Below, in pieces: positions 2,835 to 49,375 of a stretch of 64,000 bases of DNA (within the stretch, counting starts at the first letter, position 1; the number at the start of each line of letters is the position of its first letter). The stretch is from Patescibacteria group bacterium (GTDB lineage: Bacteria > Patescibacteriota > Patescibacteriia > 2-01-FULL-39-33). The notes under the pieces are model-generated. The model searched no databases, was not told the origin of the DNA, and worked only from the letters and a program-made list of their open reading frames with translations. The DNA lies in the NCBI GenBank assembly GCA_041662745.1, contig JBAZRV010000002.1:149785-213784 (forward strand). The letters are read 5' to 3'. The translations under genes and the position numbers were made by a program.

Positions 2835-3284
2835 ATGTTTTTTCGCGAAAAGAGATTAAAAAAATGGGCAGAAAATAATGGTTATACTTTTAGAAGTAGT
2901 AAAGATGAAAAATTTAAAGGTTGCTATGCTTTTAACGCAAATGATATTAATATTACTGGCAATCGTAATGGTAAAAGTTTTGAAATTATCGAAAAAGTAA
3001 ATTTATCTTTTGGCGGTTTTGAAATAGAGAGCACATCTCGTGAAAATGAAATAAGAGTAAATAGTAAGAAAGTTTATCCTAAGCCAGAATCATGGTTACC
3101 TAATTTTTTTAATGACGGAGTATTGACTACTAAACAAATAGAAAACTTACTTGATGAGTATATAAAAAATGGTAAAATCGATTATAAAAAATATTTAACT
3201 GTACAACAAAAAGTAAGTTTGATTATTATATTACCCTTTTCAGCACTTATACTTTTTGAATTTATCAAGGTTATATTTTTTTAA
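2835..3284 (+). CDS. Hypothetical small protein in a very AT-rich ORF
   Basis: 149-aa ORF with markedly lower GC than its neighbours. It has a hydrophobic C-terminus and no recognisable motif. Confidence 0.3.
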   Translation: MFFREKRLKKWAENNGYTFRSSKDEKFKGCYAFNANDINITGNRNGKSFEIIEKVNLSFGGFEIESTSRENEIRVNSKKVYPKPESWLPNFFNDGVLTTKQIENLLDEYIKNGKIDYKKYLTVQQKVSLIIILPFSALILFEFIKVIFF

Positions 3285-3630: not shown

Positions 3631-4666
3631 AAAAATCGTCATCGGCATTGTTACTTATAACTCCCGCCACAAAATCGTTGATTGCCTTAATAGCGTCAAC
3701 CGGCAGAACTATCAGCGCGAATTGGTGCAAGTGGTGGTGGTGGATAATAACAGCCATGATTCAACCAAGGAATACTTGGCCGAAGCCTGGCCGCAAGTAA
3801 CGGTCATCGCTAATGATGAAAATCTCGGTTTTGCCACGGCCAATAATCAGATTTACGCTTGGGCCAAAGACCAAGCCGATTATTTGGTTTTGCTTAATGA
3901 CGATACGATTGTTGAGCCGAATTGGCTGATCCGATTGGCCAACGCCGCTTCCGGCGATGAGACGATTGCCGCCGCGCAATCTAAATTATTACTTTATCCG
4001 GAGAAGAATCTGATTAACAGTTTGGGCAATTCCATCCAATTTTTGGGTTTTGCTTTTTGCGATCATTATCGCGAGCCGGACAGCCATGCCACGACCGCTT
4101 TATTTGATTTGCCTTACGCCTCGGGCGCGGCTGTGCTTCTAAAGCTGTCGGCGCTTCAGGAAATCGGCTTGTTTGATGAGAAGCTATTTATGTATCACGA
4201 GGATGTTGATTTGGGTTGGCGTTTGCGTTTGCTGGGCTATCGCGCGGTTCTTGATCCGCTTTCCGTCGTCTATCATAAATACAATTATTCCAAGGCCAAG
4301 TATAAATTCTATTACATGGATCGCAATCGTTGGATTGTTTTATTGAAGAATTACCGCTTAGCGACTATTATTGTCTTGGCTCCAATGCTGCTGGTAATGG
4401 AGCTTGGCATTACGGCTTTTTCCATAAAAAATGACTGGTTTAAAGAAAAACTCAAGGGCTGGTCATGGTTGTTGAGTAATTTTGGTTATATTATGGGCGA
4501 GCGCCGTAAAATTCAAGATTTACGGCGAGTGTCCGATCGGGAGATTTTGAGTTTGTTTGTCGGCCCGATCACCAATCAAGAGGTGGAAAACAAGCTGTTA
4601 GCCTGGGTGGCAAACCCGCTCCTGGAAGTTTATTTTTTATTGGTTCGGCTGATTGTTTTTTGGTAA
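3614..4666 (+). CDS. Family 2 glycosyltransferase (rhamnosyltransferase-like)
   Basis: VIGIVTYNSRHKIVDCLNSV and VVVDNNSHD motifs. 350 aa. Confidence 0.7.
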   Translation: MIQANKKIVIGIVTYNSRHKIVDCLNSVNRQNYQRELVQVVVVDNNSHDSTKEYLAEAWPQVTVIANDENLGFATANNQIYAWAKDQADYLVLLNDDTIVEPNWLIRLANAASGDETIAAAQSKLLLYPEKNLINSLGNSIQFLGFAFCDHYREPDSHATTALFDLPYASGAAVLLKLSALQEIGLFDEKLFMYHEDVDLGWRLRLLGYRAVLDPLSVVYHKYNYSKAKYKFYYMDRNRWIVLLKNYRLATIIVLAPMLLVMELGITAFSIKNDWFKEKLKGWSWLLSNFGYIMGERRKIQDLRRVSDREILSLFVGPITNQEVENKLLAWVANPLLEVYFLLVRLIVFW

Positions 4667-5640: not shown

Positions 5641-5711
5641 GGGCCTATAGTCTAGTGGTACGACGCTACATTCGCATTGTAGAGGCGGCGGTTCGATTCC
5701 GCCTAGGTCCA
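5641..5711 (+). tRNA. tRNA-Ala (anticodon CGC)
   Basis: Cloverleaf folded by hand. Acceptor stem GGGCCTA/TAGGTCC with the diagnostic G3:U70 Ala identity pair. Anticodon stem CTACA/TGTAG, loop TTCGCAT, so anticodon CGC. T-arm GGCGG-TTCGATT-CCGCC. Discriminator A. No encoded CCA. Confidence 0.9.
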
Positions 5712-5716
5712 CATAT

Positions 5717-5793
5717 GGACATTTAGCTCAGTTGGTTAGAGCGTTCGATTCACATTCGAAAGGTCACAGGTTCGAATCCTGTAATGTCCACCA
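5717..5793 (+). tRNA. tRNA-Val (anticodon CAC), CCA encoded
   Basis: Acceptor GGACATT/AATGTCC. D-stem GCTC/GAGC. Anticodon stem TTCGA/TCGAA, loop TTCACAT, so anticodon CAC. T-arm ACAGG-TTCGAAT-CCTGT. Discriminator A, then CCA. Confidence 0.9.
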
Positions 5794-7248
5794 GTTCGGA
5801 AATGTCAAATTTTGTTGGTTATTTTGGCCGCCTTGGGCGACCAAATCATACGGAATTTTAAAGTCCAAAAGCAATTGGCGGTTTTGTAAAATGCGGTTCG
5901 ACCCGATATTTTTTAGAAATGCAGCCAGTTCCTTTTTCTCTGGGCTCTGCATTAGGATATTGGCTTGGTTGAGCGATAAAATAAACTCACGAGCCGGTTC
6001 GACCCAAGAAACGCCATTCTGTTCAAAATCTTGGATTTTCTCATTAAGTTCTAACTTTCGAGTTAGGATTTTTTGTTTTCTACTGGTATATTCTTCAGTC
6101 GTGATTGTCTCGCTTAAATAGACATCAAGCAGTTTTTCTAATCGCTGGTTAATATTTTCCAATTCGCTTTTAAGATTTTGAACAGTAATGATTGCCTCGC
6201 CCTTAGCCTGTTTTTCCTCTTTGTCTATCTCAAACAATATTTTCTCGGTTTCTTGAGTCGAAATAGAAACTTTTTGAAGATAATTTTTTATCTGATTTTC
6301 CAATTCTTCTTCGCGTAAAAAATGTTTTTCGAGGCAATTCTGCTTTTTCTTGGTACAACGATAATAATTATGGCCTTTCTGTGTCTCGGCCGTAATACTG
6401 CAACCGCAAGAACATTTCAGTAGTCCAACAAAGGGAAAATCATGCTTTTTAATCCTGCCTCGCTTCTTGCCTCTTTGTCGCATGACATTTTTTACTTCTT
6501 CAAAAAGTTTCTTAGAAATCAACGGCTCGTGAGTGCCCTCAAATACTTCTCCGTCATATTTCATTAGCCCAGTATAGAAAATGTTTTGCAAAAGCGTGAA
6601 GAAATAACTTGTCCTAACTCTTTTGCCGTGAAAGCCCGTCAAATGGTGTTCTTCGCAGAACCTCTCTAAATCGCCCAATGAATAATCCTCAGTGGCGTAG
6701 AGGTCAAATATCTGTCTAATTAGCGGGCCTTTAATAGGGTCGACATCTATACCTCTCGTTTTGGGATTATTCAAATAGCCAATCGGGGCAAGCGAAGGCC
6801 AAACGCCATTTCTAATCTTTTGCCTCATGCCTCGTTTTACATTTTCTCGCAAGTTGTCGATATAGTATTTGCTTTGGCCAAAAGCGATACTAAGCATGAA
6901 TAATCCTTGCGGAGTGGGCTCAAACCAAAAGGTGGGGAATTTGAGGGCTTTTATCGCTCCCTTATCAATCATATGGATTATCTTGCCACCATCAACGCTG
7001 TTTCTCGCCAATCTATCGGGGTGCCACGAAATAATACCACTTGCTTCGCCTTTTTCGATTCTGGCTAGCATTTCGCCGAATATTATTCGGCCTGGCTCTT
7101 TGGCAGTCTTGGCTTCCTGAAAGGAAGCGACAATTTCCAGTTTTTCTTTGGCGGCAAATTCTTTTAATTCAACTAATTGGGCTTCTATAGACAGTATCTG
7201 CCTATCTTCTTCCTCAGTACTCTTGCGAGCGTAAATAAAGTACTTCAT
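5764..7248 (-). CDS. Large serine recombinase (resolvase/invertase-type catalytic domain, recombinase domain, zinc ribbon and coiled coil)
   Basis: N-terminus YARKST (catalytic Ser) through SWHPDRLAR. A Cys-rich zinc-ribbon CSCGCS...YYRC. A long coiled-coil C-terminus. The reading frame runs through the 100-bp flank element into the tRNA-Val gene before reaching a stop, so the true C-terminus is uncertain. Confidence 0.85.
   Translation of the reverse strand: MKYFIYARKSTEEEDRQILSIEAQLVELKEFAAKEKLEIVASFQEAKTAKEPGRIIFGEMLARIEKGEASGIISWHPDRLARNSVDGGKIIHMIDKGAIKALKFPTFWFEPTPQGLFMLSIAFGQSKYYIDNLRENVKRGMRQKIRNGVWPSLAPIGYLNNPKTRGIDVDPIKGPLIRQIFDLYATEDYSLGDLERFCEEHHLTGFHGKRVRTSYFFTLLQNIFYTGLMKYDGEVFEGTHEPLISKKLFEEVKNVMRQRGKKRGRIKKHDFPFVGLLKCSCGCSITAETQKGHNYYRCTKKKQNCLEKHFLREEELENQIKNYLQKVSISTQETEKILFEIDKEEKQAKGEAIITVQNLKSELENINQRLEKLLDVYLSETITTEEYTSRKQKILTRKLELNEKIQDFEQNGVSWVEPAREFILSLNQANILMQSPEKKELAAFLKNIGSNRILQNRQLLLDFKIPYDLVAQGGQNNQQNLTFPNWWTLQDSNL
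5785..5886 (+). repeat. ~100-bp tRNA-3'-flank element (copy 1, forward): the CCACCA end of tRNA-Val plus about 95 bp
   Basis: Exact reverse-complement copy at 7307-7405. A related (~85% identical) element lies immediately 3' of tRNA-Lys at 46603-46690. Confidence 0.85.
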
Positions 7249-7306
7249 GATGAGATTAATTAATGATTAATAATTTAGAATTTAAAAATTTTCTTTTACC
7301 CTAATT

Positions 7307-7405
7307 CAAAACCGCCAATTGCTTTTGGACTTTAAAATTCCGTATGATTTGGTCGCCCAAGGCGGCCAAAATAACCAACAAAATTTGACATTTCCGAACT
7401 GGTGG
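7307..7405 (-). repeat. Inverted exact copy of the 100-bp tRNA-3'-flank element (copy 2), including an inverted CCACCA
   Basis: The reverse complement of 7307-7405 equals 5785-5886. Translation of both copies yields identical peptide strings in the ORF track (…HQFGNVKFCWLFWPPWATKSYGILKSKSNWRF). Confidence 0.85.
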
Positions 7406-7494
7406 AGGATAATGGACATAGCTCGAACGCATTTTCGGGCCGTCGCAGACGGCACTGATTTTCCCCCAAAAATTAAGCCCGAATTCTGAACTTT
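7400..7494 (-). repeat. Inverted exact copy of the terminal ~95 bp of AT-rich repeat-family copy A
   Basis: The reverse complement of 7400-7494 equals 8385-8479. Both copies carry the hairpin GCCGTCTGCGACGGC. The MRSSYVHYPPP peptide appears in two different ORFs of the track. Confidence 0.85.
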
Positions 7495-7598
7495 CAAGAC
7501 TGCCAATGAGCCAGAAAAAATATCGGGTCGAACCGCATTTTGGGTAAAAGAAAATTTTTAAATTCATTATTAACATAATTAATTAACTCATAAATAAT

Positions 7599-8264
7599 AT
7601 GAACCAAAAAACTTTAAACATTATTTTTGGAATCGTCATCGTTATTTTAGTTGTGGCTGTAGCCTATTTTGCTTTTGGTAAAAAAGCTGAACAGTTAAGT
7701 GATCAAAATGAAAACATTAATGTTCCTTTGGTGGACAACAATCAAAATTTACCAACAGCCGAACAGAATCAGAATGTTAATGAGCCAGCAGTGGCCGTGA
7801 ATACAAACCAGCCAGTGGTAAATCCCACTCCACCTACAAATCCGATGGCTGACTGGAAATCATACAATAGTAGCAGTTTTAGTATAAAGTATCCTACTTA
7901 TTTATCGCAAAAAGCCAAAGAAGATGAAGTTAAATCGCCAGTAACTTCGATAGTATCTTTTCAGGGTACTGCACCTCAAAGCAATTACGGTTCTCTGCTT
8001 TCAATTGAACAAATGGTCAATCAAGGCGGATTAACTTTAACTGATTGGACTAATGAAATAATTTCTCAATCAAAATGGATTAAGCAAGGTTCGGTAAAAA
8101 TATCCGGTCAAACTGCTTATATCCTGGTTTTACCAGAAACTGATGCTGGTGCGCGTTACTTTTTCTTGAGTAAAGACGGCCGAACAATGTTTGTTATGAC
8201 AATACAGCATTTTGATCAAACAACAATTGATTCAATTATTTCCTCATTCTTATTGAAAAAATAA
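7599..8264 (+). CDS. Hypothetical membrane-anchored/secreted protein with a Q/N/P-rich linker (cargo between the nested inverted repeats)
   Basis: N-terminal TM segment IIFGIVIVILVVAVAYFAF, a low-complexity N/Q-rich segment, and a C-terminal globular part. No recognisable family. Confidence 0.45.
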   Translation: MNQKTLNIIFGIVIVILVVAVAYFAFGKKAEQLSDQNENINVPLVDNNQNLPTAEQNQNVNEPAVAVNTNQPVVNPTPPTNPMADWKSYNSSSFSIKYPTYLSQKAKEDEVKSPVTSIVSFQGTAPQSNYGSLLSIEQMVNQGGLTLTDWTNEIISQSKWIKQGSVKISGQTAYILVLPETDAGARYFFLSKDGRTMFVMTIQHFDQTTIDSIISSFLLKK

Positions 8265-8281
8265 TATTCTGATTAAGAATT

Positions 8282-8479
8282 AAAAGAATTTGCCGCCAAA
8301 TCAATAAATTTTCAAACTCTGAATTATTTGAAAATTTATTGAGATGATTTTTAGTAAAAAATCATTGAAAAACTGGAAATTGTCAAAGTTCAGAATTCGG
8401 GCTTAATTTTTGGGGGAAAATCAGTGCCGTCTGCGACGGCCCGAAAATGCGTTCGAGCTATGTCCATTATCCTCCACCA
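8282..8479 (+). repeat. AT-rich non-coding repeat family, copy A (~200 bp), ending in CCACCA
   Basis: It shares AAAAGAATTTGCCGCCAAATC…CATTGAAAAACTGGAAATTG…hairpin…AAAATGCGTTCGAGCTAT with copies at 48447-48645 and 49256-49375. Confidence 0.75.
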
Positions 8480-10586: not shown

Positions 10587-11273
10587 ATGAAAAAGAAGAG
10601 TGAGTTCTTGAGTGCCCTGGGTGTTATGTGGGAGATTTGGAAATCGCTGACGGACGAAATTTTGTCTTTAGGCGGCGATGACGAGGCGATTTGCCTTATT
10701 AAGGCGAATAATGATCTGCGAAGGCAAATGGCCGAATTGGTAATGGCTAAAGCGCGTGACATCAAAGACGCCGCCAAGCAAATCGTCTCGCCGTATCTGA
10801 CGTCTGTCCATGACCTCGTCATTGACTTCAGTCAGGATCTCGGGCAGATGATTGCCGCCGGCAAGTATGACTGGACCAACTCCGACATTACCGCCGAGCA
10901 TTTTCCTCTTAATGGAGCGGGTAAGCGGAAGGTCCGAGTCGAGTTGCTTCACTTCAATCAGTATTTCAAAAATGGCGATGAAGTGATTGCCAAACTGAAA
11001 GAAGTCAATAAGTGGCTGGCCCAGCAAGGAGCGAACTATCGCTATCGTTTCTCTCGCATTGAAGAGTTTTTGGCTTTGGGCGTGGTCCAACCCGGTCTGC
11101 AACGGCAATTTCCCATTGCCGCTCTGGGCTCAATTTGGCACCGTGCCGGCCTCCGCGACTTCGCTTACCTCTACGGGTTTGGTGCGGAGCGCGACCTGCG
11201 CCTGCGCTGTCTTGAGTTTGACTTCGGCGGCCCTTGGCGGTTCGCTGTTGTCCGCGAGCATGCCTGCCGGTAG
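10587..11273 (+). CDS. DGR target (variable) protein 1. The C-terminal ~41 codons form variable repeat VR1. The C-terminus ends …WRFAVVREHACR, reminiscent of C-type-lectin-fold DGR targets.
   Basis: Its C-terminal 123 bp match the template repeat, with substitutions only at TR adenines. It is paralogous to the downstream gene over the C-terminal ~130 aa and differs at the N-terminus. Confidence 0.8.
   Translation: MKKKSEFLSALGVMWEIWKSLTDEILSLGGDDEAICLIKANNDLRRQMAELVMAKARDIKDAAKQIVSPYLTSVHDLVIDFSQDLGQMIAAGKYDWTNSDITAEHFPLNGAGKRKVRVELLHFNQYFKNGDEVIAKLKEVNKWLAQQGANYRYRFSRIEEFLALGVVQPGLQRQFPIAALGSIWHRAGLRDFAYLYGFGAERDLRLRCLEFDFGGPWRFAVVREHACR
11133..11255 (+). repeat. DGR variable repeat VR1
   Basis: Aligned by eye to TR (12216-12339). 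About 22 mismatches, all at positions where TR has A (e.g. TR AAC codons correspond to VR CTC, TTT, GGC and so on). Three further non-A mismatches lie only in the last ~12 bp. Confidence 0.85.
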
Positions 11274-11284
11274 GCAGGCATGTT
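11257..11284 (+). other. IMH-like GC-rich segment and hairpin (CATGCCTGCC-GGTA-GGCAGGCATG) downstream of VR1. Probable DGR target-recognition/cruciform element.
   Basis: A perfect 10-bp stem with a 4-nt loop immediately 3' of VR1. The same ~60 bp (GTTGTCCGCGAGCATGCCTGCCGGTAGGCAGGCATGTTACCTTGATTCCTTGAACCTTGAC) follows VR2. It is absent after TR. Confidence 0.75.
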
Positions 11285-11333
11285 ACCTTGATTCCTTGAA
11301 CCTTGACACCAAAATCGGAAAAAGGAGGACATC

Positions 11334-11945
11334 ATGAGAACTGTAAGTAAAACCGGAAACAAAAAAGTCAGAACTGGAACTATCTCCGCCATCACTGGCG
11401 CGATAATCTGCCAAGGCGGAAAAGCCAAGGACTTGACTGCGATTGTCAGAAATGATGAATTGCTCAAACAATTGGCCACGACCATTATCGAACTGTCCAA
11501 AAAGATCATTCAAGTCATTGTTGACTGCACCATGTCGCTCGGCGATATGATCGACGCCGGCAAGTATGACTGGGTGAACTCGAACATCAACGCCAACAAC
11601 TTCCCGATCAGCAGGAAGGGTAAGAAGGTGGTCAGCATTGAACTCTGGCATCCCAACAGGTATTTTAATAACGGCGATGAAGTGATTGCCGAGCTGAAAA
11701 AAACTAAACCCGGCTATCGTTTTACTCAGATTGAAGAACTCCTGGCCTTAGGCGCGGTCCGACCCGATCTGCAACGGCAATTTCCCATTGCCGCTCTGGG
11801 CTCAATTTGGCACCCTGCCGGCGACCGCGACTTCGCTTTCCTCGACAGGCATGATGCGGAGCGCAACCTGTTCCTGGACTATCTTGAGCGTGACTTCAGC
11901 GACCGTTGGCGCTTTGCGGTTGTCCGCGAGCATGCCTGCCGGTAG
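11334..11945 (+). CDS. DGR target (variable) protein 2 (paralog of target 1). The C-terminal portion is VR2.
   Basis: The conserved segment GDMIDAGKYDW…WRFAVVREHACR is shared with target 1. Its C-terminal 122 bp match TR with A-specific differences only. Confidence 0.8.
   Translation: MRTVSKTGNKKVRTGTISAITGAIICQGGKAKDLTAIVRNDELLKQLATTIIELSKKIIQVIVDCTMSLGDMIDAGKYDWVNSNINANNFPISRKGKKVVSIELWHPNRYFNNGDEVIAELKKTKPGYRFTQIEELLALGAVRPDLQRQFPIAALGSIWHPAGDRDFAFLDRHDAERNLFLDYLERDFSDRWRFAVVREHACR
11805..11926 (+). repeat. DGR variable repeat VR2
   Basis: It differs from TR at about 17 positions, all TR adenines. The 3' end (TTGGCGCTTTGCGGTTGTCCGC) is identical to TR. Confidence 0.85.
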
Positions 11946-11956
11946 GCAGGCATGTT
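11929..11956 (+). other. IMH-like segment and hairpin downstream of VR2 (second copy)
   Basis: Identical to the 11257-11284 element. Confidence 0.75.
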
Positions 11957-11991
11957 ACCTTGATTCCTTGAACCTTGACCCCTTGAATTTT

Positions 11992-12030
11992 CCGCGCGAT
12001 GACCATAGTTATCGCGCGGCTTTTATTTTA
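11992..12030 (+). terminator. Rho-independent terminator after the target operon
   Basis: Stem CCGCGCGAT / ATCGCGCGG with a 10-nt loop, followed by TTTTATTTT. Confidence 0.6.
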
Positions 12031-12215
12031 TCTAATTTTTTACTATAATAGAGCCAAGGGTTAATACTCCCGCGGCCACGGTTTCGGGATACCCGCAAAA
12101 TAAACAAGATTGCTCGGCGTCTGATGTTGGCGGGTTTAAAGACCCCGAATAAAATACAGCCGGAAGATACGGCCTGGCTGTTCAACCGGCAGTGGCTACA
12201 GATGGCGTCAGACGA

Positions 12216-12339
12216 ATTTTGGCACCATGCCGGCAACCGCAACTTCGCTTACCTCAACAGGAATGATGCGAAGCGCAACCTGAACCTGAACTATCTTGAG
12301 AATGACTTCAACGACAATTGGCGCTTTGCGGTTGTCCGC
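12216..12339 (+). repeat. DGR template repeat (TR)
   Basis: Adenine-rich (Asn-codon-rich if translated: …AGNRNFAYLNRNDAKRNLNLNYLENDFNDNWRFAVV). It matches VR1 and VR2 except at A positions. It is followed by divergent sequence (TATCAATTTTG) instead of the IMH plus hairpin. A -10-like TATAAT sits at 12044-12049 upstream. Confidence 0.85.
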
Positions 12340-12772
12340 TATCAATTTTGTTTTCCGTCCTCGCTGTTGGCGGGGATGTTTTTTCCAAACCGATTTTCCA
12401 CGCATAGGCCAACCGTCCGATTTCCTCAATTTTAAGCGCCAAATCGCGGAATTTATTATCATTAAATAGCTTCATTTCCCAGCACAGCCGCAAATAAAAT
12501 TTCAGCAGATCGATTTTTTTTATTGATTTTATTGCCGGTTTTAATTTTTTGTCTTTCGGCAGATATTGGGCGGTGGCCAGTATTTCCAATAGTTCCAGAA
12601 ATATCTGATCCAGGCGGATGCCCAAGGTAAAGCGAGATGTTTTGGGAAAATTTTTTAACCAATCATGCCAAAGTTTGTAGGCAGCGATGGTTTTGCCCAG
12701 AACCAGTAAATTTCCCGTCGGGGGGGGGGATTTAAAGGATGAATTATGAGAAATAAGATCAGATTGAGTCAT
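12308..12772 (-). CDS. Avd-like accessory variability determinant (four-helix-bundle, 23S rRNA-IVS protein family)
   Basis: AAYKLWHDWLKNFPKTSRFTLGIRLDQIFLELLEILATAQ…LALKIEEIGRLAYAWKIGLE resembles the DGR Avd/IVS four-helix-bundle family. It is encoded on the opposite strand to RT. Its 3' end overlaps TR by ~30 bp and its 5' end overlaps the RT start by 27 bp. Confidence 0.6.
   Translation of the reverse strand: MTQSDLISHNSSFKSPPPTGNLLVLGKTIAAYKLWHDWLKNFPKTSRFTLGIRLDQIFLELLEILATAQYLPKDKKLKPAIKSIKKIDLLKFYLRLCWEMKLFNDNKFRDLALKIEEIGRLAYAWKIGLEKTSPPTARTENKIDSGQPQSANCR
12720..12729. repeat. Homopolymeric G10 (C10 on the minus strand) tract
   Basis: CGGGGGGGGGGA at 12719-12730. It encodes PPP in the avd N-terminus and lies 17-26 bp upstream of the RT start codon, adjacent to its RBS AAAGGA. 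Confidence 0.8.
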
Positions 12773-46512: not shown

Positions 46513-46588
46513 GCGCCTATAGCTCAGTCGGTAGAGCAACAGCCTTTTAAGCTGATGGTCGCTGGTTCGAGTCCAGCTGGGCGCACCA
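46513..46588 (+). tRNA. tRNA-Lys (anticodon UUU), CCA encoded
   Basis: Acceptor GCGCCTA/TGGGCGC. D-arm AGCTCAGTCGGTAGAGC. Anticodon loop CTTTTAA. T-arm GCTGG-TTCGAGT-CCAGC. Discriminator A, then CCA. Confidence 0.9.
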
Positions 46589-46602
46589 GAAAGGAATAGT
46601 CA

Positions 46603-46690
46603 AATTTTTCCGCTTCCCGTCGCCGATTTCGGCGACCAAATCATACGGAATTTCATAATCAAAATGCAATTGGCGGTTTTGTCTGAATAT
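46603..46690 (+). repeat. Divergent copy (~85% identical) of the 100-bp tRNA-3'-flank element
   Basis: GCGACCAAATCATACGGAATTT…CAATTGGCGGTTTTG is shared with 5835-5886. It contains the perfect hairpin GTCGCCGATTTCGGCGAC. Confidence 0.75.
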
Positions 46691-46883
46691 TAATTCAGGT
46701 AAAAGAAAATTTTTATGTTTATTTGACTGCAGAAATTATCATGATTTCTGTTTTTTTGTTCTATTTTGGTGCATATGATTGACATTTTGGTTGATATTTG
46801 CTAAAATTTGGTATTCCCAATGTGAGGGATGTTCTTTGAAATGCCTAGTGCTATCAGCATAACTCAAACGAAAGGAGAGTTTT

Positions 46884-48371
46884 ATGCGTATTGCAGCGAT
46901 TTCCGTTGGTTTGCAAGGGCATGGGCATAACCTCGCCTTTGCTCCAAACGCCATTGTTACAGTGGCAGCCGCTGTTCAGCGGGTTTTTGGAGATAAAGTC
47001 CAGATACGTGTTTTCGACGAAGTTTTGTTTGGTCACGATCAGCTCAAAGAGCTATTGAGTGTGTTTACTCCGAATGTTCTTTTTGTGAGTGTTCCGGTAA
47101 CTGGTTATTATTATTCAGCACTGGACATTTACAATTGGGCAAAAGAGCATGCCATTCCAGTGTTGACTGGAGGGTACCACTTTAATATTCCAGACGTCGA
47201 TTACCATGGGAATCAAGTTTATCCTGGAGTAATCGCCCGTCTAGCCACAGAGCGAGAAGTGTTTGTCTGCTATGCTGACGGGGAATCAACAGCAGTCGGA
47301 TTTGTTGAACACCTCTTTAATCCTAATCATCGCAAGCTCGCTTCAGTTCCAAATCTCTGTTATGTAGAGGCGGGTCAGCTCATTGTCACGCCACGGCAAG
47401 AAAATACCCTTGGTACGCAAGCATACCCAAATTTGCCACTGGAGTCGTTCGATCCCCGTGCTTATTGGGGCTCGCTATCAAAGAGTGATGTCCATGCCAG
47501 CGGAAAGGACTTAATTGGTAACGTTCCAATTGGACGTACAATCGTCGGAGCCAAGATTGTGGAGGGGTGCACTTATCGCCGAGTGAGGTTGAGCCAAGGA
47601 AAGGAAGCATGCTCTTACTGCACATTGACTAGCCCCTGCCACGCGTCCTCAGGTCAGAGTTTTTGGCGTATTACTCAAGAAATGTATGACTATGTCGAGA
47701 GTATATCTTGGTCTGGAGATCAGGGAGTTCGTTGCTATCAAATTGGAGATGATATGGGTAGCGATATCCCTCTCATTAAATCAATTTGGGAATCGCGACC
47801 ACCATGGGCTAACGAGGTTCCTCTCGGTCATCGTGTATATGCTTGGCATGTTCTTGGAGAAGACCAAGCAAGAATGCTATACGACATTGGTGTTCGATGG
47901 ATTTATCTCGGTGGCGATGGGAAAAGGGGGTTTACGAACGAGTGGTCGGTAAGACATCCACTTGTTCGGACTCTGGAGAATTGCCGTAAGCACGGCCTAC
48001 GAGCAAGCATTGGCTTTGTTCTCGGTCAACGAAATCAGGATTGGCATGATATTGAGAAATGGTCCAAATTCAGTCAGCGATTGGCCGCAGAATATGGGGA
48101 TTCTCTCATTATCGTCGACGGCTGGGTGAATGTGCTTGCTCCTGGTTCTCCGGATTGGGCGGTTTTGTGTCAGTATGAACCAAGTTTTGGGAATACGGAT
48201 TGCCCTGATTTGGAGAAGGCCCGCATGGTTTTCTGGCAACAGTGCACAAAACTCTGCGATCATCAGAACCCCGAAGATATCCGTCGGTTGCTGTATGAAT
48301 GGGTGCCACAGTTTGAAAACGACATGAATAGGCATCCTGGCGTCCAGCGTAGTTTCATGTTGCGACCGTAA
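46884..48371 (+). CDS. Hypothetical protein with an N-terminal B12-binding-like Rossmann domain. Possibly radical SAM-related but with a non-canonical Cys motif.
   Basis: The N-terminal …VLFVSVPVTGYYYSALDIYNWAKEHAIPVLTGGYHFN pattern resembles B12-binding domains of B12-dependent radical SAM enzymes. The cysteine cluster is CTYRRVRLSQGKEACSYC (Cx14CxxC), not CxxxCxxC. Codon usage and GC differ from neighbouring genes. Confidence 0.4.
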   Translation: MRIAAISVGLQGHGHNLAFAPNAIVTVAAAVQRVFGDKVQIRVFDEVLFGHDQLKELLSVFTPNVLFVSVPVTGYYYSALDIYNWAKEHAIPVLTGGYHFNIPDVDYHGNQVYPGVIARLATEREVFVCYADGESTAVGFVEHLFNPNHRKLASVPNLCYVEAGQLIVTPRQENTLGTQAYPNLPLESFDPRAYWGSLSKSDVHASGKDLIGNVPIGRTIVGAKIVEGCTYRRVRLSQGKEACSYCTLTSPCHASSGQSFWRITQEMYDYVESISWSGDQGVRCYQIGDDMGSDIPLIKSIWESRPPWANEVPLGHRVYAWHVLGEDQARMLYDIGVRWIYLGGDGKRGFTNEWSVRHPLVRTLENCRKHGLRASIGFVLGQRNQDWHDIEKWSKFSQRLAAEYGDSLIIVDGWVNVLAPGSPDWAVLCQYEPSFGNTDCPDLEKARMVFWQQCTKLCDHQNPEDIRRLLYEWVPQFENDMNRHPGVQRSFMLRP

Positions 48372-48446
48372 CGGGAAGTGTTTTTATTTAGTGGTGTTGT
48401 GCCTCGCATGACACCACTTTTCTTTTTTATTAATTTTTCAAAGAGC

Positions 48447-48645
48447 TAAAAAAATTTGCCGCCAAATCCAGTAAATTTTTCAATAAATCAGCTCTTGAAA
48501 AATTTACTGAAATGAGTTATGATTAACTCATTGAAAAACTGGAAATTGCCGTAAATCAGAATTAGGATTGGGTTTCGTCGGGAGGAAAATCTGCGTCCGC
48601 CGTTGGCGGACAGCCAAAATGCGTTCGAGCTATCTTTAAGATACA
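48447..48645 (+). repeat. AT-rich non-coding repeat family, copy B. It ends in a copy of the tRNA-Lys 3' end.
   Basis: AAAAAAATTTGCCGCCAAATCC…CATTGAAAAACTGGAAATTGCC…GTCCGCCGTTGGCGGAC hairpin…AAAATGCGTTCGAGCTAT, followed by the 20-bp direct repeat. Confidence 0.75.
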
Positions 48646-48684
48646 GCACCAGAAAGGAATAGTCATTCTTTACAATAAAAGGAG

Positions 48685-49128
48685 ATGGTCATGGCTCAAA
48701 TTAAGGTGATAGCTTTTGATGTTTACGGAACCATTCTCTGTTCTGATGACCATGAAAATATTTTGCCGCCACGGTCGGGTTTTACGGAATTCATTTTGCA
48801 TGCTAAGGATTTGAGAATTAAAACCGTTACCAGCTCTGATTCCGATTTGACTAACATGCAATTGGATTTAGCCGCCACCTTTAACGGCGTAGCACCTTTT
48901 GGTTTAGAAATATTTGACGGTTTTTTCAGGCTTGCCATGTACCCCAAGGTTTACCAACAGATTTTGCGATTTTTTGGCATTAAAGATGAGGAATTATTGG
49001 TAATCGGCGATGATTATGCTAAGGATTTATCGCAGGCGCCTTTGCAGGCCCATAAAATCTTAGTTCCGAACTATAAGATTGTCGCCGATGGATTTAGTTT
49101 TTCTCAAGTAGTTATTTCCGACCTTTAA
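48685..49128 (+). CDS. Small HAD-superfamily hydrolase (haloacid-dehalogenase-like motif I DxYGT)
   Basis: IAFDVYGTIL (motif I) and VIGDDYAKDL (motif IV). Only 147 aa. Confidence 0.55.
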   Translation: MVMAQIKVIAFDVYGTILCSDDHENILPPRSGFTEFILHAKDLRIKTVTSSDSDLTNMQLDLAATFNGVAPFGLEIFDGFFRLAMYPKVYQQILRFFGIKDEELLVIGDDYAKDLSQAPLQAHKILVPNYKIVADGFSFSQVVISDL

Positions 49129-49255
49129 CATTCGCCCTCACAAAGCGGATGTTTTTTTGTTATTGATCTTTGACACAACAACCAAGGAAAGGGAAAAGCC
49201 ATGAAAACTATCGCTATCATGCGGGGCTTTTCTTTTTCTTAAATTTTCAAAAGTT

Positions 49256-49375
49256 AAAAGAATTTGCCGCCAAACCCAATAAATTTTTCAAAAGATAGCC
49301 CTATCAGGATTGGATTTCGTCGGGAAGAAAATCTGTGTTCGCTTGTAGCGGACAGCCAAAATGCGTATTTTAAAA
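49256..49375 (+). repeat. AT-rich non-coding repeat family, copy C (internally deleted variant)
   Basis: AAAAGAATTTGCCGCCAAACCCAATAAATTTTTCAAAAG…CAGGATTGGATTTCGTCGGGAAGAAAATCTG…GCGGACAGCCAAAATGCG. It lacks the central ~65 bp present in copies A and B. Confidence 0.7.

Follow-up and report, generated by a model that had tools for sequence, protein, structure and literature searches.

How did a single gene with foreign codon usage come to lie behind a tRNA-Lys gene, between two perfect copies of a short repeat? The question is raised by a stretch of 64,000 nt from a Patescibacteria group bacterium (assembly GCA_041662745.1, contig JBAZRV010000002.1, positions 149,785-213,784 of the forward strand), here called the window, within which all coordinates are given unless another locus is named. 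The interval 46586-48648 is referred to as E1, and a decayed second element that follows it as E2. E1 is probably a non-autonomous derivative, devoid of a recombinase gene, of a family of large serine recombinase (LSR) elements residing at tRNA 3' ends, and it appears to stand in tandem with the remnant E2.

Public data were scanned with two queries, the 20-mer GCACCAGAAAGGAATAGTCA that bounds the island and a conserved 21-mer of arm a, the segment that begins directly downstream of the tRNA. The scans returned 13 loci, from Buchananbacteria-like and other Patescibacteria metagenome-assembled genomes and from metagenomes. Element-free loci were compared as well: at L021 the tRNA-Lys is followed by 278 nt and a HAD-family hydrolase gene (HAD), and at L024 by a 117-aa open reading frame (ORF), HAD preceded by a leader and a polysaccharide deacetylase gene, as on the right in the window; neither locus holds arms a or b, a recombinase gene or the radical S-adenosylmethionine (SAM) gene carried by E1. 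At L007 and L019 (DnaB 77% identical) the order is DnaB, tRNA-Lys, arm a and an LSR gene of the Lys type. L009 has an LSR module and, directly upstream of HAD, a B12-radical SAM cargo with a canonical CX3CX2C motif in the same setting of leader and right arm; its HAD is about 87-88% identical to that of the window and its right arm 95.5%. Further cargos occupy the same slot in L011 and L030, and homology across the slot is lost within a few bases past the start codon and returns with the T-run of the terminator that belongs to each cargo. The same gene order as in the window was found in an independent assembly, L005, so the island is not an assembly artefact. In a third dataset a 1.8-kb contig breaks in both flanking repeats, indicating that the arms are multi-copy, as expected. 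Judged by this comparison of sequences, the 2-kb stretch after tRNA-Lys is a genuine insertion. An ORF survey of 46583-48665 found one long ORF (495 aa, 46884-48371) and zero recombinase ORFs, and thus agrees with the locus comparison in bearing out two claims of an earlier, sequence-only reading of the locus, that an insertion adjoins tRNA-Lys and that no recombinase lies inside it.

The 20-bp direct repeat on which that reading was built is exact and non-random. GCACCAGAAAGGAATAGTCA occurs at 46583-46602 and 48646-48665, both copies on the forward strand, and nowhere else in the whole window with up to 3 mismatches allowed; its chance expectation in shuffled sequence is 0. Its make-up had been misjudged. 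The tRNA-Lys(UUU) gene occupies 46513-46588 (+; ARAGORN, Rfam tRNA 73.9 bits), and the repeat consists of GCA, the last 3 nt of the tRNA body (46583-46585), CCA (46586-46588) and the first 14 nt of the downstream arm a. The share of the tRNA is 6 nt including CCA, not the last 6 nt of the tRNA with CCA in addition. The repeat is not a displaced tRNA 3' segment, and the classic footprint of one, as which it had been read, is not present: only GCA is tRNA body, and the 14 nt after CCA make up the inner half-site of the left arm of an element. A tyrosine integrase, which had been kept as an option, gives way to an LSR, the recombinase of this element family, which needs few identical bases.

The CCA would itself be a contribution of the element in the Lys and Val types, because the element-free orthologous tRNA-Lys genes of L021 and L024 end GCA|TAA with no encoded CCA, and the tRNA-Ala of the window (5641-5712), with no adjacent element, is also without one. 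Both window tRNAs that bear Val- or Lys-type elements (5717-5793 and 46513-46588) encode CCA; in the Glu-type copy of L015 the CCA is not supplied by the element. The same 20-mer was found 3' of tRNA-Arg(UCG) in L010 and L016 and of tRNA-Lys(CUU) in L012, and as the internal junction between arms b and a in L007, L009 and L011. The two copies in the window would mark the starts of two units, neither a target duplication nor a displaced tRNA end, and the repeat would exist because E1 abuts the stub of an older E2.

E1 is tied to the LSR family by its two ends, which are homologous to the arms of recombinase-bearing members. On the left, arm a (46589-46682, +; the putative P' arm) is 97% identical to arm a of L007 and L030, and 88-97% identical to the arm a copies of L007, L009, L011 and L030; against the copy at tRNA-Val (5794-5886) the identity is 75-78%. 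In LSR-bearing relatives the 3' coding tail of the recombinase gene lies on the opposite strand of arm a. It is followed by the palindrome CTGAATATTAATTCAG and by box p (GGTAAAAGAAAATTTTTA...), together at 46683-46730 (+); the two form the a-p junction, which in complete elements stands in front of the LSR gene. This junction is identical to L011 1517-1475 at 43/43 positions and 98% identical to L007, and further box p matches lie at 7543 and, inverted, at 7283-7306. The leader (46731-46883, +) contains a ribosome-binding site (RBS) and a promoter-like site, TTGACA-17-TAAAAT with the TG of an extended -10 (46779-46807; 11/12 in a promoter scan). It is common to elements with different cargos, being conserved in L009 (80% identical to the window), in L011 and before HAD in L024.

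Behind the cargo gene (46884-48371, +) stands an intrinsic-terminator-like hairpin with a T run (48390-48418, +); the cargos of L009 and L011 each have their own, different hairpin at this position. The right arm, n-b (48420-48645, +; the putative P arm), is 95.5% identical to the right arms of L009 and L030 and 91-96% identical to those of L007, L009, L011 and L030, and these approximately 230 nt before the right repeat also resemble 8265-8473 and 49215-49366. Its part b ends with AAAATGCGTTCGAGC (48616-48630), and its part n is a 5' coding fragment of the LSR gene with a 66-nt two-hairpin insert. The two flanking repeat types that had been described, a flank element and a right-hand repeat copy shared with the recombinase module at tRNA-Val, were both recovered. 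Neither arm nor the leader belongs to an Rfam family, tRNAs being the only matches, and the island encodes no recombinase of its own with Resolvase, Recombinase and zinc-ribbon domains.

An interrupted recombinase gene was also seen in L009 (4583-4790), with a 66-nt two-hairpin insertion and an in-frame stop after the codons ELKEFAAK. The 66-nt insert flanked by ELKEFAAK-type recombinase codons constitutes part n of every right arm (window 48443-48551, 8277-8300, 49254-49274 and 7147-7170); the right arm therefore holds a relic of the recombinase 5' end.

A complete sister element of the Val type lies at 5717-8479 of the window and is built of nested perfect inverted repeats. From tRNA-Val (5717-5793) it runs through arm a (5794-5886), the 27-nt box t (5888-5914), the LSR gene (7248..5764, -; 494-aa ORF), which reads antisense through arm a into tRNA-Val, an inverted box p (7271-7306), an inverted and attP-like series of arm a, core and arm b (7307-7505), an inverted box t (7515-7541), box p (7539-7572), a cargo ORF (7599-8264) and a right arm n-b-core (8265-8479). 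The inverted repeats measure 100 nt (5787-5886/7307-7406), 27 nt (5888-5914/7515-7541) and 106 nt (7400-7505/8374-8479); the inverted copy of arm a is 100% identical and is joined via a tRNA-like core to the inverted arm b. The Val-type LSR, 39 kb from E1, has Resolvase, Recombinase and zinc-ribbon domains, matches XisF and CcrA/B in NCBIfam, and is intact with the catalytic Ser10. The same architecture and orientation recur in five of the 13 loci (L007, L009, L014, L018 and L019), and from arm a onward in L011, whose contig begins inside arm a.

LSR genes are borne by the tRNA-Val element of the window and by L007, L009, L011, L014, L018 and L030. The Lys-type LSR, seen at this tRNA-Lys site in other genomes, is 72% identical to the Val-type LSR of the window, and arm a was found directly 3' of tRNA-Val(CAC), Val(GAC), Lys(UUU), Lys(CUU), Arg(UCG) and Glu(UUC). 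Homologues of the LSR number at least 7951 at E<1e-30, of which the best 120 listed are 64-93% identical, the query's own protein aside; the named sources among the matches listed are several Patescibacteria groups. No relatives of the LSR were found among the viral contigs of IMG/VR, which leaves a phage origin unsupported.

As a rule the LSR ORFs extend across box t and arm a, where they encode a conserved tail (...KNIGSN(H/R)ILQNRQL.F..KIPYDLVAE...LTFP.W), and their C-termini fall into two classes, one reading into antisense tRNA (..DSNL, ..ESNP) and one into arm b (..ILKIARTxF). In L030 (1-4016) the LSR module is opposite to that of the other loci and reads p, LSR forwards, t', a', core', b', t', p, cargo, n-b, GCA and flank, an orientation that matches the two tail classes. 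The occurrence of both orientations suggests that the module may invert between the inverted copies of arm a and so change the tail of its own recombinase. The 27-nt t boxes were considered as terminal inverted repeats of a cassette resembling an insertion sequence and carrying the LSR, and TTCTTT(G/A)(A/C)AAT as an integron-like cassette boundary; neither was needed for the data. Another tRNA-Lys(UUU), in L013 (4197-4388), is followed by a Val-type arm a, the palindrome, box p and ATGAAATAG, a recombinase start codon with a stop at the third codon, at which point the locus ends; it may be a second recombinase-less derivative.

The arms and the tRNA also show the spacing of serine integrase sites, in which the motif of the zinc-ribbon domain occupies positions 16-24 of the attP half-site and lies 5 bp nearer the centre in attB (PMC3783163). 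Arm b ends ...AAAATGCG-TTCGAG-N16-GCA and the tRNA ends ...GG-TTCGAG-N11-GCA, so that the distance from the start of TTCGA to GCA (CCA in the Val type) is 22 nt in arm b and 17 nt in the tRNA. This spacing was seen in every Lys- and Val-type copy examined, and in both types the outer motif is thus shifted by 5 bp in attB. From the fit of this offset arm b is taken as the P arm, the tRNA as the B arm and tRNA positions 71-73 as the place of crossover, which at this locus would be the GCA of 46583-46585. The zinc-ribbon domain of the LSR would read the T-loop TTCGA in the tRNA and a copy of it 5 bp further out in arm b. Comparison of the loci shows the putative attP of the family as arm b, GCA or CCA and arm a, and its putative attB as the tRNA 3' end. 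This assignment is borne out by proper right junctions, which read arm b and GCA|CATAATAAAAAA in L030, and arm b and CCA|CACATAAAA or CCA|CATTAAATT in L014 and L018, with an A/T-rich right flank in all three. Between the types the arms differ, with core CCA in the Val type and GCA in the Lys type and inner half-sites identical at 7/16 and 11/17 positions.

The right end of E1 is not such a hybrid attR of P arm and host flank. The window has arm b, GCA, CCA and 14 nt of arm a, an attP-like junction of the P arm with most of the inner half-site of P', which is best read as the boundary with a second, decayed element, of which the right repeat copy would be the truncated left end. This copy is followed by TTCTTTACAAT and an RBS, which match the leader at its 3' end (GTTCTTTGAAAT in E1, and GTTCTTTAAAAT before HAD in L024, where the orthologue is preceded by a full leader). 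Leader remnant and HAD gene (48685-49128; Pfam Hydrolase) together span 48666-49128 (+). Downstream lies a third right arm n-b (49215-49366, +), also present in L020, which is cut directly after AAAATGCG and would be the decayed right end of E2. At the orthologous right junction L009 has a diverged version, GCATTAGAAGGTTCGTTTAGTCA / GCATTAGAAGGTTCGTTTAGTCATGTCTTTACAAT, with a stub approximately 65% identical. Because a leader remnant precedes HAD and a third, truncated right arm follows it, the locus can be described as a putative tandem array of the tRNA, E1 (CCA-a, p, leader, radical SAM gene, n-b and GCA) and the E2 remnant, with the HAD gene as the likely cargo of E2.

A route from a complete element to E1 can be proposed. 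The complete form holds an LSR gene between inverted copies of arm a, and a promoter-bearing leader driving a swappable cargo. In the orientation seen in L030 the two p boxes are direct repeats, and a deletion between them would leave a, p, leader, cargo and n-b, the structure at 46589-48645; the 43/43 identity of the a-p junction of E1 to the junction before the LSR gene of L011 agrees with such an origin. The cargo would presumably be expressed from the leader promoter and end at its own terminator, and the E2 stub would comprise CCA and 14 nt of arm a, a deletion, the leader end, HAD and a truncated right arm. Since the right junction is attP-like rather than attR, and the window holds no cognate LSR, E1 is most likely immobile today, a fixed derivative. 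It had been left open earlier whether the island is a remnant or is mobilised in trans; the remnant-like derivative fits, and mobilisation by the LSR at tRNA-Val is doubtful, given the different core and half-sites and the 75-78% identity of arm a.

Several points weigh against this account. If E1 had left, the empty site should read ...CTGGGCGCACCAGAAAGGAATAGTCATTCTTTACAAT and the circle ...AAGATACAGCACCAGAAAGGAATAGTCAAATTTTTCC, flanked by the cargo gene and by the leader. One exact-match metagenome scan with the 20-mer gave 6 hits and among them neither a clean empty site (tRNA-Lys, stub and HAD) nor an excision junction, and the loci free of the element belong to distant relatives (HAD 60-64% identical) and show some rearrangement. 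The right repeat is identical at 20/20 positions to the start of a functional arm, compared with approximately 65% for the stub of L009, which is odd for an old relic and suggests that recombination or conversion took place recently, in a way left unspecified by the model. Integration of E1 beside an existing attL would need attP x attL, which is not canonical for LSRs. The search for a Lys-type LSR covers the window only, and the recombination chemistry as a whole is deduced from sequence.

Of the other explanations, the one that survives best, a minority prospect in our estimate, is that the scaffold of arm a, leader and right arm is old at this site and that only the cargo was swapped, by homologous recombination in the arms with an incoming copy of the element, so that the radical SAM gene would owe its place to no site-specific event. 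The window, L009, L011 and L030 have leader and right arm in common, their cargos differ and the edges of homology are sharp; moreover, the right arm is better conserved between the window and L009 (95.5%) than the HAD gene (87%). Such an exchange would leave the first capture of a foreign ORF unexplained, and it sits uneasily with a leader that is only 80% identical between the window and L009. It is compatible with the derivation of E1 from an LSR element rather than exclusive of it.

We think it unlikely, and less probable than an exchange of cargo, that E1 is an active satellite moved by an LSR encoded elsewhere, either that at tRNA-Val or one of the Lys type, the 20-bp repeats serving as att cores. 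Both arms are whole, their identity to the arms of LSR-bearing elements being 91-97%, the repeat is perfect, an intact LSR with its catalytic Ser10 lies 39 kb away, and the assembly of the third dataset breaks in both arms, which points to multiple copies. The Val-type arms, however, differ in core, inner half-sites and arm a (75-78%), and no excised or empty form is among the 6 metagenome hits. The right junction is moreover P with a P'-like half rather than P with B', so the logic of attL x attR does not apply to E1.

It is very improbable that nothing here is mobile, the arms a and b being intergenic regulatory repeats or repeats resembling repetitive extragenic palindromes, and the gene vertically inherited. 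Neither Rfam matches nor phage relatives came to light, and the arrangement is stable in two assemblies; against this stand the foreign codon usage of the cargo, the rarity of its family (10 members in 5.8 billion proteins, in unrelated contexts), the constant linkage of the arms to LSR genes and tRNA ends in many genomes, and the absence of arms, recombinase and radical SAM gene from L021 and L024. The least credible explanation is a tyrosine-integrase island whose repeat is a displaced tRNA 3' end, since the position at a tRNA 3' end, the direct repeat and a truly tRNA-derived 51-nt repeat at the tRNA-Lys of L021 are outweighed by a repeat of which only GCA and CCA are tRNA, by ends that match the LSR family and by the lack of a tyrosine recombinase in the window locus or any related locus.

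The 51-nt direct repeat of the tRNA-Lys 3' end in L021 (879-929/1027-1077) has 97 nt between its copies. A displaced tRNA-Tyr 3' fragment was also seen in L018 (approximately 3845-4131, -), about 200 nt downstream of the intact gene. The tRNA-end inserts of L021 and L018 are GC-rich and have GCGAAGC-like motifs in common.

The gene carried by E1 is foreign by its codons, as the sequence-only reading had it, with frequent TCA and CCA. Its synonymous-codon log-likelihood (z = -3.0) is the most extreme of the real genes in the window, and its codon G is 219, compared with at most 115 for host genes. The shares differ for Pro-CCA (0.48 vs 0.06), Ser-TCA (0.19 vs 0.10), Leu-CTC (0.31 vs 0.03) and Ala-GCA (0.31 vs 0.05). 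The higher GC content also claimed is marginal: the ORF has a GC of 0.478 and the window 0.453, which is not an outlier, and GC at third codon positions (GC3) is below that of the neighbours (0.43 vs approximately 0.53).

The protein belongs to a family of 10 members among 5.8 billion proteins, 44-57% identical, in all of which C229, C243 and C246 are invariant. The alignment gives the spacing of these cysteines as CX13CX2C, which corrects the Cx14CxxC read earlier. In Pfam the protein matched Radical_SAM at E 0.038, below the cut-off, and gave no B12-binding hit; searches of NCBIfam and of PDB sequences returned nothing useful. A structure model from the 10-sequence alignment was of good quality (predicted local distance difference test, pLDDT, 88; predicted template-modelling score, pTM, 0.88), and its best PDB matches in Foldseek were OxsB, CysS, TsrM, MgmA, TokK and AprD4 (E 1e-14 to 1e-10, TM 0.5-0.6). 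A profile search added 407 distant relatives; of the eight examined, six carry both Pfam B12-binding and Radical_SAM, and the motifs seen are CXnCX2C (n = 6-18). The architecture of class B radical SAM enzymes, an N-terminal B12-binding domain and a barrel, was thus found at the level of fold only, and the place of their CX3CX2C [4Fe-4S] motif is taken by CX13CX2C. The cargo is taken to be a divergent member of the B12-binding-domain radical SAM superfamily that was gained by horizontal transfer, and a predicted enzyme; the class proposed for it at the outset is supported at fold level. The fold alone is silent on the use of cobalamin, because AprD4, a close structural match, is B12-free.

Homologues of the cargo are solitary genes in unrelated neighbourhoods, including one high-GC contig, with no biosynthetic neighbours. 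Their loci (L001-L004 and L027-L029) show no element arms and no leader, so the gene is not generally linked to the element. Two paralogues occur in one assembly (L001 and L002, both GCA_034680565.1), and the homologue in L003 abuts the 3' end of tRNA-Gly(UCC), where no repeat was seen. The GC content of genes of this family is above that of their flanks in 6/6 contexts, the window included (L027: 0.70 vs 0.58). The cargo of L009 was tried as an orthologue and rejected (hhalign probability 7%); the two are of one superfamily. PADLOC assigned no defence family to the E1 cargo or the sister cargos.

Patescibacteria have tiny genomes, and gene gain in them is poorly understood. The locus shows one route that is concrete and recurrent, by small LSR elements that sit at tRNA ends and bring along a promoter and a slot for one gene. 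With some hesitation, as a proposal that stands slightly below even chances, the island may be viewed as a by-product of an undescribed, extremely abundant and Patescibacteria-specific LSR system that would use the T-loop as the zinc-ribbon motif of attB, cross over at positions 71-73, supply the CCA in its Lys and Val types, keep its gene antisense across attL into the tRNA, flip a module by means of a second, inverted attP so as to change its own C-terminus and exchange single genes, rare radical SAM enzymes among them, between minimal genomes through a promoter-equipped slot. In a limited literature search, which is not proof of novelty, no account was found of this recombinase and tRNA arrangement in Patescibacteria; the features for which that search gave no description are the tRNA 3'-end target, the antisense ORF overlap with attL and tRNA, the internal inverted attP, the module in both orientations and the promoter-equipped cargo slot. 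If the site logic is true, the family would form a naturally occurring set of serine integrases directed at the universally conserved tRNA T-loop, of interest for mobile-element biology and for integrase engineering. The cargo, of a very rare radical SAM lineage with CX13CX2C and always a lone gene, would be a tractable enzyme. The main interest of the locus lies in the element family that it exposes and in the rare radical SAM lineage that it carries.

Some other features of the window stand apart from this subject. Repeats of 270 nt and 127 nt (82-87%) at 11041-12344, with copy starts 672 and then 412 nt apart, extend over two or three neighbouring ORFs and are unrelated to the element. A 149-aa ORF at 2835-3284 has a GC of 0.25 and a GC3 of 0.15 among genes of approximately 0.45-0.48 GC. 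Intergenic inverted repeats at 27199-27266/53306-53373 (68 nt, 75%) and 10456-10486/53347-53377 (31 nt, 87%) contain TTGACAAAATATT and may be shared promoter regions upstream of glycosyltransferase and other genes.

Among known systems, the cargo is closest to the class B radical SAM enzymes (OxsB, TsrM, TokK, CysS and MgmA, and the B12-free AprD4), with which it shares a Rossmann-like B12-type domain and a barrel; it differs from them in having CX13CX2C in place of CX3CX2C, in the tiny size of its family (10) and in always being a lone gene. With Islander-type tRNA islands, which use tyrosine integrases, the locus shares the position at a tRNA 3' end, a direct repeat at both ends, tandem accretion and foreign cargo, but it has no tyrosine integrase, only 3 nt of tRNA body lie in the repeat, nor is the tRNA split and then made whole by a long copy borne by the island.

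In the integration-dependent systems of the mycobacteriophages BPs and Brujita the integrase gene overlaps attP at its 3' end; these systems use tyrosine integrases and a degradation tag. The likeness to the present family is that the C-terminus of the recombinase changes with the state of the attachment site, the LSR tails reading into antisense tRNA or into arm b. The closest relation is to LSR elements such as Listeria A118/LI, Bxb1, phiC31, SCCmec Ccr and XisF, with which the family shares its domains, a short crossover identity, an imperfect dyad and the 5-bp motif shift. Unlike these, it targets the extreme 3' end of tRNA genes with a recombinase ORF that reads antisense through attL into the tRNA, and it carries a second, inverted attP inside and its module in both orientations; the island of the window differs further in having no recombinase and a right end that is attP-like.

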